From a virus: a stretch of 11,429 nt of DNA. Position 1 is the stretch's first letter, and every line of letters begins with the position of its first letter. The DNA is taken from the UHGV virus genome UHGV-1560016; one strand, given 5' to 3'. Below, in pieces: positions 1,705-6,023 of this stretch. The translations under genes were made by a program, and so were the position numbers. The notes below the pieces were generated by a model. It was not told the origin of the DNA and searched no databases. It saw only the letters and a list, made by a program, of their open reading frames with translations.

Positions 1705-1875
1705 GGATCCTCATGTTTGTCAAACCTGTTAAAGGGCGTTCCTGACCCTGCCCGCGGCGACCTTTTGCCCGCCGAAGGGCGAAATGTTGACGAGAACAAC
1801 TACTGGCTGCGCCGTGAAGTAGCGGGTGATATCCGGCGCGTGAATAAAAAGGTGAATACCGATGACGAGCTTTAA
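1705..1875 (+). other. Start-less open frame (56 codons) ending at a TAA that overlaps the sheath start; possible 3' remnant of the ancestral gene preceding the sheath gene
   Basis: Frame 1 is open from just after the Cro-like TGA (1702-1704) to TAA at 1873-1875 with no ATG. The only candidate start is TTG at 1717 with no RBS. Its stop overlaps the sheath ATG (1862) in the manner of translationally coupled phage genes. Confidence 0.25.
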
Positions 1876-3355
1876 CACCATTCCGTCGAATACGCTGGTT
1901 CCGCTGTTTTATGCGGAAATGGATAATCAGGCGGCGAATACTGCACAGGACAGCGGAGCATCGCTGCTGATTGGTCATGCCAATAACGGTGCAGAGATTG
2001 TTGCCAACAGTCTGGTACTGATGCCGTCGGCAGACTATGCACGCCAGATTTGTGGTGCGGGAAGTCAGCTGGCGCGTATGGTCGAGGCTTATCGCCAGAC
2101 CGACCCGTTTGGCGAGCTATATGTGATTGCCGTTCCTGAATCCACGGGCGCGGCGGCAACGGTTACGCTGACGGTGACCGGCGCGGCAACCGAAACCGGC
2201 ACGGTGAATGTTTATGTGGGACGTACCCGCGTGCAGGCACCGGTGACCAACGGCGATAACGTTGCGACGATTGCCAGCAGTATCCAGGATGCCATCAATG
2301 CCGTTCCGACCCTGCCGTTTACTGCCTCATCTTCGGCAGGCGTGGTCACACTGACCGCGCGTCATAAGGGGCTTTGCGGGAATGAAATTCCTGTCAGCCT
2401 CAATTACTACGGCTTTGGTGGGGGCGAAGTGCTGCCAGCGGGCGTACAGATTGCCGTGGCGACGGGTACCGCCGGAACGGGCGCTCCGGTTCTCACCGGC
2501 GCGGTGGCTGCAATGGCGGATGAGCCGTTTGATTATATCGGCCTGCCGTTCAACGACACAGCCTCCGTTAACACGCTGGTGACCGAGATGAACGATACCA
2601 GCGGTCGCTGGAGCTATGCGCGTCAGCTGTATGGTCATGTGTATACGGCAAAGATCGGCACGCTGTCAGAACTGGTGACCGCAGGTGACCAGTTTAACCA
2701 GCAGCACATTACCCTGGCGGGATACGAAAAAGAGACCCAGACGCCTGCCGACGAGCTGGCGGCAAGCCGTACCGCCCGCGCAGCGGTGTTTATCCGCAAC
2801 GATCCGGCACGTCCCACGCAGACCGGTGAGCTGGTGGGTATGCTGCCTGCGCCGAAGGGGAAACGGTTCACGATGACCGAACAACAGACCCTGCTGTCTC
2901 ATGGCGTGGCAACGGCGTGTGTCGAAAGCGGGGTGCTGCGCATTCAGCGTGATGTCACCACGTACAGGAAAAACGCTTACGGTGTTGCGGATAACAGCTA
3001 CCTCGACAGCGAGACGCTGCATACCAGCGCGTATGTGCTGCGCAAACTGAAATCCGTCATTACCAGTAAGTACGGGCGTCACAAGCTTGCCAGCGACGGT
3101 ACCCGCTTTGGTCCCGGTCAGGCGATTGTCACACCGGCGGTGATCAAAGGGGAACTGCTGGCAACCTACCGTCAGCTTGAGCGTGCGGGGATCGTGGAAA
3201 ACTACGAACTGTTTAAGCAGTACCTGGTTGTGGAGCGTGATGCCAGCGATCCGAACCGCCTGAACACGCTGTTCCCGCCTGACTATGTTAACCAGTTGCG
3301 TGTCTTTGCCGTGGTTAACCAGTTCCGTCTTCAGTATTCAGAGGAGTCTGCATAA
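1862..3355 (+). CDS. Contractile tail sheath protein (Mu gpL-like, 497 aa)
   Basis: A 497-aa ORF immediately upstream of, and coupled to, a 118-aa tube gene (TAATG overlap at 3353-3357), followed by chaperone and tape measure genes. This is the size and order of myovirus sheath genes. GAGGAG RBS for the next gene is embedded in its 3' end. Confidence 0.85.
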   Translation: MTSFNTIPSNTLVPLFYAEMDNQAANTAQDSGASLLIGHANNGAEIVANSLVLMPSADYARQICGAGSQLARMVEAYRQTDPFGELYVIAVPESTGAAATVTLTVTGAATETGTVNVYVGRTRVQAPVTNGDNVATIASSIQDAINAVPTLPFTASSSAGVVTLTARHKGLCGNEIPVSLNYYGFGGGEVLPAGVQIAVATGTAGTGAPVLTGAVAAMADEPFDYIGLPFNDTASVNTLVTEMNDTSGRWSYARQLYGHVYTAKIGTLSELVTAGDQFNQQHITLAGYEKETQTPADELAASRTARAAVFIRNDPARPTQTGELVGMLPAPKGKRFTMTEQQTLLSHGVATACVESGVLRIQRDVTTYRKNAYGVADNSYLDSETLHTSAYVLRKLKSVITSKYGRHKLASDGTRFGPGQAIVTPAVIKGELLATYRQLERAGIVENYELFKQYLVVERDASDPNRLNTLFPPDYVNQLRVFAVVNQFRLQYSEESA

Positions 3356-3711
3356 TGGCCCGTATCGGGGGAACCTGTTATTTCAAAATTGACGGTCAGC
3401 AGCTATCGCTGACCGGCGGCATTGAGGTGCCCATGAACAGGACGGTCAATGATGACATCATCGGCCTGGACGGTTCAGTGGACCGCAAGGAAACTCACCG
3501 TGCGCCCTATGTCAAAGGGACCTTCAAGGTGCCGAAGAATTTTCCGGTGAACAAAATCACCTCGTCTGATGAGATGACCATCACTGCCGAGCTGGCGAAC
3601 GGTCAGGTCTATGTACTGTCGTCTGCCTGGCTGCACGGCGAAGCGAACCATAATGCCGAAGAAGGCACGGTTGATCTTGAGTTCCACGGTGAAGAAGGGG
3701 ATTACCAGTGA
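3355..3711 (+). CDS. Tail tube protein (Mu gpM-like, 118 aa)
   Basis: ATG at 3355 overlaps the sheath stop, with GAGGAG 8 nt upstream. Size and position between sheath and chaperone/tape measure fit a tube protein. Confidence 0.82.
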   Translation: MARIGGTCYFKIDGQQLSLTGGIEVPMNRTVNDDIIGLDGSVDRKETHRAPYVKGTFKVPKNFPVNKITSSDEMTITAELANGQVYVLSSAWLHGEANHNAEEGTVDLEFHGEEGDYQ

Positions 3712-4031
3712 TTGAGCTTGTACTTAAAAAACCGATCATCGCCCACAAAGAAACACTGCATGTGCTGGAAATACGTGAGCCTACGTATGACGAGATTGAG
3801 GCGCTGGGGTTCCCTTTCTCTGTTTCACCTGATGGTGGTATGAAAATGGACAGTCAGGTAGCGCTGAAATATATCCCGCTTCTGGCCGGGATCCCGCGCT
3901 CGTCTGCAGCGCAGATGACGAAGCTGGATATTTTCAAGGCAGGCATGATTGTAATGCGTTTTTTTACCGGCTTGGAGACGGAAGAGACCTCCGGAAGCGA
4001 TTCTACAATGTCGCGTGGTTCTGGAAATTAA
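3708..4031 (+). CDS. Tail assembly chaperone, short form (107 aa, GTG start)
   Basis: GTG at 3708 overlaps the tube TGA (GTGA). It sits between tube and tape measure and contains a T7 slippery run leading into a -1 frame extension. Confidence 0.72.
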   Translation: MIELVLKKPIIAHKETLHVLEIREPTYDEIEALGFPFSVSPDGGMKMDSQVALKYIPLLAGIPRSSAAQMTKLDIFKAGMIVMRFFTGLETEETSGSDSTMSRGSGN

Positions 4032-4123
4032 ACCCCCTTGAACTTCGCCGGACGGCTATTTCCCACTTTGCTGATCTGGAGGCAGAGGCCGTCCGTATAA
4101 ATGAGGAGATGAAGCATGGCTGA
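3708..4123 (+). CDS. Tail assembly chaperone, long form made by programmed -1 frameshift at TTTTTTT (3959-3965); predicted about 139 aa
   Basis: Zero-frame codons cgT-TTT-TTT-acc give a T_TTT_TTT heptamer. The -1 frame is open from 3833 (after TGA at 3830-3832) to TGA at 4121-4123, which overlaps the tape-measure ATG (4116). This is the G/GT-type arrangement conserved in tailed phages. Confidence 0.6.
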
Positions 4124-6023
4124 TAATTTTCAGCTGAAAGCCATCATCACCGCCGTTGACAGGCTGTCCGGCCCGCTTAAAGGTATGCAGCGTCAGCTTA
4201 AGGGGTTTCAGAAAGAAGTCTCCAGCCTTGCTCTGGGCGCTGCCGGGGCGGGTACTGCAATAATGGGGGCACTGGCACTCCCTGTAAAATCAGCCATCAC
4301 CCTTGAATCGAAGATGGCTGATGTCCGCAAAGTGGTAGACGGTCTGGATACGCCGGATGCGTTTAAGGCCATGACGGAGCAGGTACGCGCTTTGTCTACT
4401 GAGCTTCCCATGTCTGCAGACGGGATCGCGGAAATTGTGGCGGCTGGCGGTCAGGCCGGGATTGCACGTGATGAACTGATGCAGTTTGCCACTGATGCGG
4501 TGAAGATGGGCGTGGCCTTTGATACCACGGCTGAAGAGTCCGGGCAGATGATGGCCCAGTGGCGTACTGCGTTTAATATGACGCAGGATGAAGTGGCCGG
4601 GCTGGCTGACAAAATCAACTACCTTGGTAATACCGGCCCGGCGAATGCGAAGAAAATCTCCGATATTGTTACGCGTATTGGTCCTTTAGGTGGTGTTGCA
4701 GGTGTGGCTTCCGGCGAAATCGCGGCAATGGGGGCAACCATTGCCGGGATGGGCGTGGAGTCAGAAATTGCCGCCACAGGGATCAAGAACTTCATGCTTT
4801 CCCTGACCGCGGGAAATTCCGCGACAAAATCGCAGAAACAGGCATTACGTTTTCTGCGGATCAATCCGAAGAAATTAGCTGCTGATATGCAGAAAGATGC
4901 CCGGGGAACCATGCTGTCTGTACTGGATGCGATGGCTAAAGTGCCCAAAGAAAAACAGGCAGCTGTGCTGAATGCCCTGTTCGGGAAAGAGTCTCTGGGC
5001 GCGATAGCACCTCTGCTGACTAACCTTGATTTGTTGCGTACCAACTTCAGGCGGGTTGCGGATTCCCAGCAGTATGGCAGTTCGATGCAGAAGGAATATG
5101 CTTCGAGGGCAGCGACGACGGAAAACCAGCTTTTACTTCTGCAAAATCAACTTGATGCCATTTCTTCCACGCTGGGGGAAACGTTTCTTCCTGAGGTTAA
5201 TGATGGTCTTGAAGAGGTAAAACCGCTCCTTGAGGAAGTGAGAACGTTTGTCCGTGAAAACCCGGAGCTCGTTAAGACCATTGCTAAAATCGGTCTGGCC
5301 TTACTGACGGTGGGAGCCGCTGCAGGCTCTTTGTCCAGAATTATGAAAGTTCTCGGCGGTGTGATGAATATGACGCCTGCTAAGGGGCTGATTGCTCTTC
5401 TGGTTGGTGGCGCTTACCTCATTATTGATAACTGGGAAACCGTAGGTCCTGTCATAAAAAAAGTCTGGCACGTGGTGGATGAAACGGCGCAGGCGATGGG
5501 GGGATGGGAAACTGTTCTGAAAGCGATTGCCCTGTTTATGGCAACCAAATGGGTTGCTGACGTTACCAAATCCATTACCGCAGTGACCAGAGAGATGCGT
5601 ACGCTGGGGAAGGTATCGGCAGAAACGGGATTGATGGGGAAAGGCCGCGGCTTTATCGGGAAGGCCGGGGTATATGGTTTTCTGGGAACCCTGATGTATG
5701 AGCCGGTTAAAGATACTCTGGAAAGTGTTGTTCCTGAAGATACGGTTAACTGGCTGGATAATAAAGGGCTGTTTCTGGCTTCAGACTGGACGCCTTTTTT
5801 TGATCGTAAAGAGTACGAGCAGTATCAGGCCAGCCTGAGTCAGTACAAACCCAATGTTCCGCTGTTGAATCCATCTTCTTCCATGACACAGCACAGCGAG
5901 CTGAAAGTCACGTTCGAGAATGCTCCGCCAGGTATGAAGATAATTGATGTACCGGGCAAAGCCGATCCCCTGATGAAAATCACGCACGATGTGGGGTATT
6001 CCCCTTTTCGTTTTCCACGATAA
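4116..6023 (+). CDS. Tail tape measure protein (635 aa)
   Basis: Largest ORF in the operon, directly after the frameshifted chaperone pair. It has Gly/Ala-rich hydrophobic segments (e.g. LALGAAGAGTAIMGALALPV, GPLGGVAGVASGEIAAMGATIAGMGV) typical of tape measure proteins. Confidence 0.88.
   Translation: MADNFQLKAIITAVDRLSGPLKGMQRQLKGFQKEVSSLALGAAGAGTAIMGALALPVKSAITLESKMADVRKVVDGLDTPDAFKAMTEQVRALSTELPMSADGIAEIVAAGGQAGIARDELMQFATDAVKMGVAFDTTAEESGQMMAQWRTAFNMTQDEVAGLADKINYLGNTGPANAKKISDIVTRIGPLGGVAGVASGEIAAMGATIAGMGVESEIAATGIKNFMLSLTAGNSATKSQKQALRFLRINPKKLAADMQKDARGTMLSVLDAMAKVPKEKQAAVLNALFGKESLGAIAPLLTNLDLLRTNFRRVADSQQYGSSMQKEYASRAATTENQLLLLQNQLDAISSTLGETFLPEVNDGLEEVKPLLEEVRTFVRENPELVKTIAKIGLALLTVGAAAGSLSRIMKVLGGVMNMTPAKGLIALLVGGAYLIIDNWETVGPVIKKVWHVVDETAQAMGGWETVLKAIALFMATKWVADVTKSITAVTREMRTLGKVSAETGLMGKGRGFIGKAGVYGFLGTLMYEPVKDTLESVVPEDTVNWLDNKGLFLASDWTPFFDRKEYEQYQASLSQYKPNVPLLNPSSSMTQHSELKVTFENAPPGMKIIDVPGKADPLMKITHDVGYSPFRFPR

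Follow-up and report, generated by a model that had tools for sequence, protein, structure and literature searches.

Sequence evidence for a programmed -1 frameshift in the tail assembly chaperone gene of an SfIV-like prophage

Results

Organisation of the tail genes

We analysed a stretch of phage DNA of 11,429 nt, referred to below as the window. Its source type is an SfIV-like prophage of E. coli/Shigella: the 1046 bases around the site of interest share 99.9% identity with Escherichia phage vB_EcoM-720R4 and 99% with Shigella phage SfIV, and copies of the 416-base feature under study, with no less than 98.6% identity, were found in 212 of 5426 complete E. coli genomes. Gene order and Pfam matches identify the tail module as Mu-type and contractile. 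The features used in the following are listed below.

1717-1875: DUF2635 protein (PF10948)
1862..3355, + strand: tail sheath protein gene (PF04984, PF17482, PF17481)
3355..3711, + strand: tail tube protein gene, upstream neighbour of the chaperone gene (PF10618 Tail_tube, E 3.3e-33)
3708..4031, + strand: tail assembly chaperone, short form (PF10109 Phage_TAC_7, E 1.2e-7)
3959..3965, + strand: slippery heptamer T_TTT_TTT, codons CGT TTT TTT (R84 F85 F86)
3965..4123, + strand: -1 frame extension, 52 codons (YRLGDGRDLRKRFYNVAWFWKLNPLELRRTAISHFADLEAEAVRINEEMKHG) followed by TGA
join(3708..3965, 3965..4123): predicted long form of the chaperone, 138 aa
4116..6023, + strand: tape measure protein gene (PF10145 PhageMin_Tail, E 2.2e-42)
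6048 (start): DNA circularisation protein gene, followed by homologues of the Mu baseplate proteins P/Gp44, Gp45 and Gp46, a Baseplate_J protein and Gp48

The chaperone gene lies between the genes for the tube (PF10618) and the tape measure (PF10145), and its GTG start overlaps the stop of the tube gene. Its short form, which we take as the zero frame, runs from the GTG at 3708 to the TAA at 4029-4031 and has 107 aa. The match to PF10109, a family described as 'tail assembly chaperone proteins E, or 41 or 14', scores 32.1 bits against a cut-off of 25. Residues 5-86 correspond to profile positions 3-78 of 79, and the domain therefore stops exactly at the FF dipeptide of the slippery run. The short form also matches phrog_166 'tail protein' (E 1.9e-25) and is named 'phage tail assembly protein' in RefSeq. 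An NCBIfam search returned no match and a PDB sequence search returned nothing meaningful.

A mosaic breakpoint lies at approximately 3736-3745 of the window, where the nucleotide match to SfV, SfI, SfII and two other phages stops just inside the chaperone gene. These phages have about 96% nucleotide identity to the window across the tube gene and, according to the annotation, the sheath gene is also within this common stretch; their chaperones have 44-46% protein identity to that of the window. Judging from this pattern, the chaperone has been exchanged as a unit, presumably together with the tape measure. Such joint exchange would be expected, because the two proteins bind each other.

Slippery heptamer and reading frames

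The run at 3959-3965 reads g-TTTTTTT-a and the local zero-frame peptide is ...MRFF. Since position 3959 is the third position of its codon (CGT, 3957-3959), the run is T_TTT_TTT in the zero frame, a member of the motif class H_HH.U_UU.Y that is rated efficient in E. coli. The phase counted from the GTG at 3708 thus agrees with the original prediction, which had placed a slippery T_TTT_TTT in the chaperone frame. The predicted extent of the -1 frame was likewise reproduced by our frame check: it is open from 3833 to the TGA at 4121-4123, and after a -1 slip the TAC at 3965 would be read next, with 52 sense codons in all (YRLGDGRD...EEMKHG). This TGA does overlap the start of the tape-measure gene, as had been claimed, the overlap with the ATG at 4116 being 8 nt. 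The +1 frame is open only over 3955-4041 and is closed at 4041.

Within the window alone, these features are not striking. TTTTTTT occurs 5 times, at 1063-1069 among other places, against 1.7 expected, with 13 of 200 shuffles reaching 5, and an open stretch of 52 codons is not rare by itself. A single T7 run with an open -1 frame being unremarkable, the case has to rest on the comparison with homologues.

Other slippery motifs were seen nearby. The tape-measure gene shares the reading frame of the chaperone's zero frame, and it contains a second T_TTT_TTT in zero-frame phase at 5795-5803. The next -1 codon there is TGA; a slip would truncate the tape measure protein by about 75 residues and add nothing, and this occurrence may be due to chance. 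Within the chaperone gene, C_CCT_TTC at 3812-3818 is in phase at residue 36 and belongs to a motif class that is also efficient in E. coli reporters. The -1 frame after it meets a stop at 3830-3832, and a slip there would be abortive.

Conservation in related loci

We compared the site by hand in ten phages, namely phiP27, ST64B, YeP1, SfV, SfII, Pantoea AH07, Edwardsiella EPP-1, Stutzerimonas PG1, Pseudomonas DVM-2008 and Burkholderia BgVeeders33, whose chaperones range from 75% down to 31% identity to that of the window. In each of the ten, a T_TTT_TTN in zero-frame phase falls at residues 84-89, and the -1 frame is open from the heptamer to a stop at most 10 nt from the tape-measure start. 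We then analysed by script 317 related loci collected from viral contigs, contigs of one genome per species and phage records. The relatives span enterobacteria to Pseudomonas and Burkholderia and, once duplicates are removed, correspond to 119 distinct proteins (13 clusters at 70% identity, 4 at 50%). The in-phase T_TTT_TTN is kept in 316 of the 317 loci. Among the 119 distinct proteins the heptamer is TTTTTTC in 60, TTTTTTT in 49, TTTTTTG in 9 and TTTTTTA in 1. In every locus bearing a heptamer the -1 extension is 50-63 codons long, and in each of the 13 cluster representatives and of the 11 phage records examined the stop of the -1 frame lies at the tape-measure start or no more than 10 nt from it. 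The +1 frame is not conserved, with 0 to 76 open codons among the relatives.

The silent positions at the run are also constrained. All 119 distinct proteins have T as the wobble base preceding the run, compared to 15-31% T for the same codon families elsewhere in the genes, and the codons concerned (GGT, AGT, CGT, AAT and CCT) encode five amino acids. The first Phe codon of the run is TTT in all of them, compared to 42% elsewhere. This bias argues for selection on the nucleotide sequence itself.

The original prediction had also named homologues with a closed -1 frame as grounds for refuting it. The frame is open in 316 of the 317 loci, and the only homologue without the heptamer is Paraburkholderia phage IPK (PV588664.1, approximately 1240-1460; locus L090), whose record is marked UNVERIFIED. 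IPK encodes the FF dipeptide as TTC TTC, and its -1 frame is closed where the other homologues have the slip site; the motif HFWNVSP is still found in the -1 frame further downstream, after a GTG. This exception may stem from an error in the sequence, from a shift site that has moved elsewhere or from independent initiation. Because loss of the heptamer and closure of the frame coincide there, IPK does not weaken the case for the window.

One cluster of relatives probably extends the arrangement to another kind of element. All 40 distinct variants in the cluster of Pseudomonas phage DVM-2008 (P. fluorescens Q8r1-96) have an in-phase T_TTT_TTC and a -1 extension of 54 codons. A related SfV-like tail cluster has been described together with bacteriocin genes in prophage 01 of Pf-5 (PMC2647930), and the elements of the DVM-2008 cluster are probably tailocin-like. 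They would then rely on the same frameshift.

Coding character of the -1 frame

In 24 phage records, a tblastn search with the 52-aa peptide returned homologues at the corresponding place, with identities between 83% and 39%, and the alignment of extension peptides has a conserved motif, L..(Y/F)..A.(F/Y)W...P......A.RI. The peptide alone matches phrog_32181 (E 4.5e-6), which indicates that homologous peptides have been called as separate ORFs in other phage annotations. No Pfam family matched the extension at E <= 0.1, and an AlphaFold2 model of the long form based on 5 database sequences was uninformative (mean pLDDT 44.5).

We calculated divergence by codon position for 595 sequence pairs that are 3-30% diverged. 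Past the zero-frame stop, divergence at -1 codon positions 1, 2 and 3 was 0.072, 0.040 and 0.253, respectively, and where both frames are open the pattern was flat (0.171, 0.112 and 0.154). This pattern indicates that 4032-4115, which every record examined labels as intergenic, evolves under purifying selection as a protein in the -1 frame. No ORF of at least 20 aa starting with ATG, GTG or TTG was found in the -1 frame over 3833-4123. Lacking a start codon of its own, the extension would be reachable only from the upstream frame, and independent initiation of the extension in the window was rejected as an explanation on this ground.

Search for stimulatory elements

A stimulatory stem-loop downstream of 3965, for which the original prediction had advised a search, did not emerge. 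The 80 nt downstream of the heptamer do not fold better than their shuffles (z = +0.66), z-scores for 13 lineage representatives were inconsistent and mostly near zero with no common structure, and RNAalifold on eight sub-lineage sequences gave 0 consensus pairs. We therefore rejected a downstream stimulatory RNA structure on the basis of the single-sequence, 13-lineage and RNAalifold folds. Inspection of 3939-3958 by eye gave no Shine-Dalgarno-like GGAG or GAGG, only AAGG and CAGG. A role of the T-run as part of a terminator was rejected as well, there being no terminator-like site on the + strand in 3300-4500.

With no stimulator found, the efficiency of the shift is perhaps only a few tenths of a percent. 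According to the E. coli reporter values that we take from the supplement of Sharma 2014, the -1 shift without stimulator is 0.33% for U_UUU_UUU, 0.28% for the lambda site G_GGA_AAG and 0.12% for U_UUU_UUC, and with a pseudoknot U_UUU_UUU reaches 10%. By these values a bare U_UUU_UUU is as slippery as the site of lambda.

Annotation of the site

The expectation that automated annotation calls only the short form held throughout: none of the 12 phage records of this family examined has a joined CDS, and neither has the RefSeq PGAP annotation of an E. coli chromosome. These annotations leave a gap of 84-140 nt after the short form, labelled intergenic, whereas the P2 record does carry a join.

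Some database proteins (P0003-P0007 and P0001) have the two frames fused by indels. P0007, a 'bacteriophage protein' of Shigella flexneri on 661 contigs, has the zero-frame tail joined to the extension about 12 codons past the slip site, by what we take to be a 1-nt insertion. In P0001 only one of the two Phe residues is present, as would fit a directly fused frame at a T5 run. Unless these are assembly errors, prophages with such fused forms would have the long form only and probably do not build tails.

Discussion

Proposed mechanism

The anatomy of the site, its homology, its conservation and the coding signature of its -1 frame are direct observations, and from them we infer that slippage takes place and that it is ribosomal. 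We estimate a probability of roughly 0.88 that a programmed -1 ribosomal frameshift yields two products here, of 107 aa and 138 aa. Most ribosomes would stay in frame and produce the 107-aa protein. With one tRNA-Phe on UUU 3960-3962 in the P site and another on UUU 3963-3965 in the A site, a small proportion of the ribosomes would slip back by one base, and on U_UUU_UUU both tRNAs could re-pair perfectly. Translation would then proceed through 52 codons of the -1 frame and end at the TGA at 4121-4123, giving a 138-aa protein with the same 86 N-terminal residues as the short form and a different C-terminal domain. The shift would proceed without an RNA stimulator and would yield a small, fixed fraction of 138-aa product. 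If lambda G/GT and P2 E/E+E' are a guide, the N-terminal domain common to both forms would coat the tape measure protein and the extension would recruit the tube protein, and a fixed low ratio of long to short form would be needed for a tail of correct length.

The protein product is compatible with another route. RNA polymerase stuttering on the T7 run could add one U to some of the transcripts, and the 138-aa protein (R-F-F-Y-R...) resulting from their standard translation would be indistinguishable from the ribosomal one. Homopolymeric A/T runs are known slippage sites, and run-length variants exist in databases, such as the directly fused T5 form P0001. However, efficient transcriptional slippage in bacteria usually needs runs of 8-9 or more, while 60 of the 119 distinct homologues have only six T's followed by C, another 10 have six T's followed by G or A, and P2 uses T6G for its reported frameshift. 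The run is, in addition, always in the phase X_XXY_YYZ, although part of this constancy is due to common descent. In favour of stuttering, E. coli genes are depleted of UUUUUUU in all three frames, and Sharma et al. hold transcriptional slippage or indels partly responsible for it. Because more than half of the relatives, and P2, have six T's only, we consider transcriptional slippage quite unlikely as the main route to the long form.

Recoding of either kind would be superfluous if the 107-aa protein were the only product and the open -1 frame and the T-run were there by chance or as a relic. One T7 and a 52-codon open frame are statistically ordinary in a single sequence, and all public annotations have the short form alone. 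Against this, lineages with as little as about 30% protein identity still share the heptamer and its phase, as well as how long the -1 frame stays open and where it stops, the 84-nt 'intergenic' stretch evolves under purifying selection in the -1 frame, and the site of the window is homologous to that of P2, which together make such a coincidence very improbable. Alternatively, internal initiation in the -1 frame might yield the conserved C-terminal domain as a small protein of its own, with no fusion. IPK would suit this idea: it lacks the heptamer, its -1 frame is closed at the slip position, and a GTG precedes the motif in that frame. The window, however, offers no such ORF of 20 aa or more, and a conserved in-phase heptamer would be left without a reason. 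We regard internal initiation as scarcely credible for the window and retain the -1 ribosomal frameshift as the preferred reading.

The last base of the heptamer varies among lineages. T7 is carried by the lineage of the window, phiP27, ST64B and Yersinia YeP1; most relatives, including the Pseudomonas tailocin clusters, have T6C and P2 has T6G. The stimulator-free shift differs about three-fold between heptamer variants, judging from the 0.33% and 0.12% among the E. coli reporter values of the Sharma 2014 supplement. One could speculate that the last base tunes the ratio of the two products, that T7 additionally allows some transcriptional slippage and that the homopolymer serves as a mutational on/off point for tail assembly in prophages. 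We consider this combined proposal unlikely; if it were true, two mechanisms would feed one product.

The value of these results is mainly one of annotation, and the understanding of frameshifting or tail assembly is unchanged. The site is widespread in SfIV-, SfV-, phiP27- and ST64B-like prophages of E. coli, Shigella and Salmonella, and it is also present in relatives from Yersinia, Pantoea and Edwardsiella and in SfV-like tail clusters of Pseudomonas. A second product that looks essential is missing from every annotation record examined. A simple rule could be added to annotation pipelines, namely to call a joined CDS where a PF10109 domain ends in T_TTT_TTN and the -1 frame is open to the tape-measure start. 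The arrangement is already well known from P2 and lambda, and what public annotation has passed over here is ordinary biology.

Comparison with known systems

The sheath, tube, tape measure, DNA circularisation protein and Gp44-48 homologues around the chaperone gene are those of a Mu-like tail, and Mu gp41 itself has a weak match to PF10109. However, Mu gp41 belongs to PF23746 (9.1e-35) and the protein of the window matches PF10109 only. A -2 shift is mentioned for Mu in the literature (PMC5009743, PMC2628397), while the +1/-2 frame of the window closes at 4041 and is not conserved; a Mu-like +1/-2 shift was rejected for these reasons. By these matches and frames, the chaperone of the window is not of the Mu gp41 type, despite the Mu-like remainder of the tail.

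The likeness to G/GT of phage lambda is one of arrangement. Both sites have the same gene position, between the major tail and tape-measure genes, and two proteins with a common N-terminus in a fixed ratio are predicted for the window as they are found in lambda. The two slip sites are comparable in stimulator-free reporters (0.28% for lambda, 0.33% for the window heptamer), and the lambda shift is not known to require an RNA stimulator either. The differences are the heptamer (G_GGA_AAG in lambda), the tRNAs (Gly/Lys in lambda, Phe/Phe in the window), the lack of detectable sequence similarity and the non-contractile tail of lambda. An excess of the long form is reported to be deleterious in lambda. 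The review PMC5009743 assigns binding of the tape measure to G and to the G part of GT, assigns binding of the major tail protein to the T domain, and calls the ratio of roughly 30:1 crucial.

The closest parallel is E/E+E' of phage P2. The P2 record lists E with 91 aa and E+E' as a join across a -1 frameshift site; this site reads GGT TTT TTG, which is T_TTT_TTG in the same phase as the heptamer of the window. PMC3091744, citing Christie 2002 and Xu 2004, gives TTTTTTG as the site of the P2 -1 shift and as conserved in P2-like Burkholderia phages, and its account of the P2 site is one without a downstream hairpin. P2 E+E' matches PF10109 (E 2.3e-12) with residues 7-85 at profile positions 2-78 of 79, which places the P2 slip site at the same end of the same domain. 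We aligned a profile of 13 long forms to P2 E+E' with hhalign and obtained 123 columns over both halves (probability 89.7%, E 1.8e-6), with the junctions GF|F and GF|V of the window family and P2 in register.

The two systems thus share a T_TTT_TTN heptamer that follows a GGT-type codon in the same phase, similar product sizes (91 and 141-142 aa in P2, 107 and 138 aa in the window), an 8-nt overlap of the extension stop with the tape-measure start (E' stop and gene T in P2) and, as far as the folds above and the cited account of P2 go, the absence of a downstream structure. They differ in that sequence identity is only about 16%, and the extension of the window falls below the threshold of Pfam PF06528 (Phage_P2_GpE); the family profile aligns to E' within the full-length match. 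The heptamer of the window ends in T, with a Phe codon in the A site where P2 has Leu, the zero-frame tail past the site has 21 codons compared to 6 in P2, and the surrounding tail genes are Mu-type and not P2-type. The claim that the locus has the conserved chaperone-pair arrangement of lambda G/GT and P2 E/E+E' is supported by the PF10109 match, the gene position, the 316 of 317 loci, the coding -1 frame and the positional homology of the site to that of P2. Together, these sequence comparisons support the site as a typical, though unannotated, representative of the frameshifted tail assembly chaperones of the P2 E/E+E' kind.
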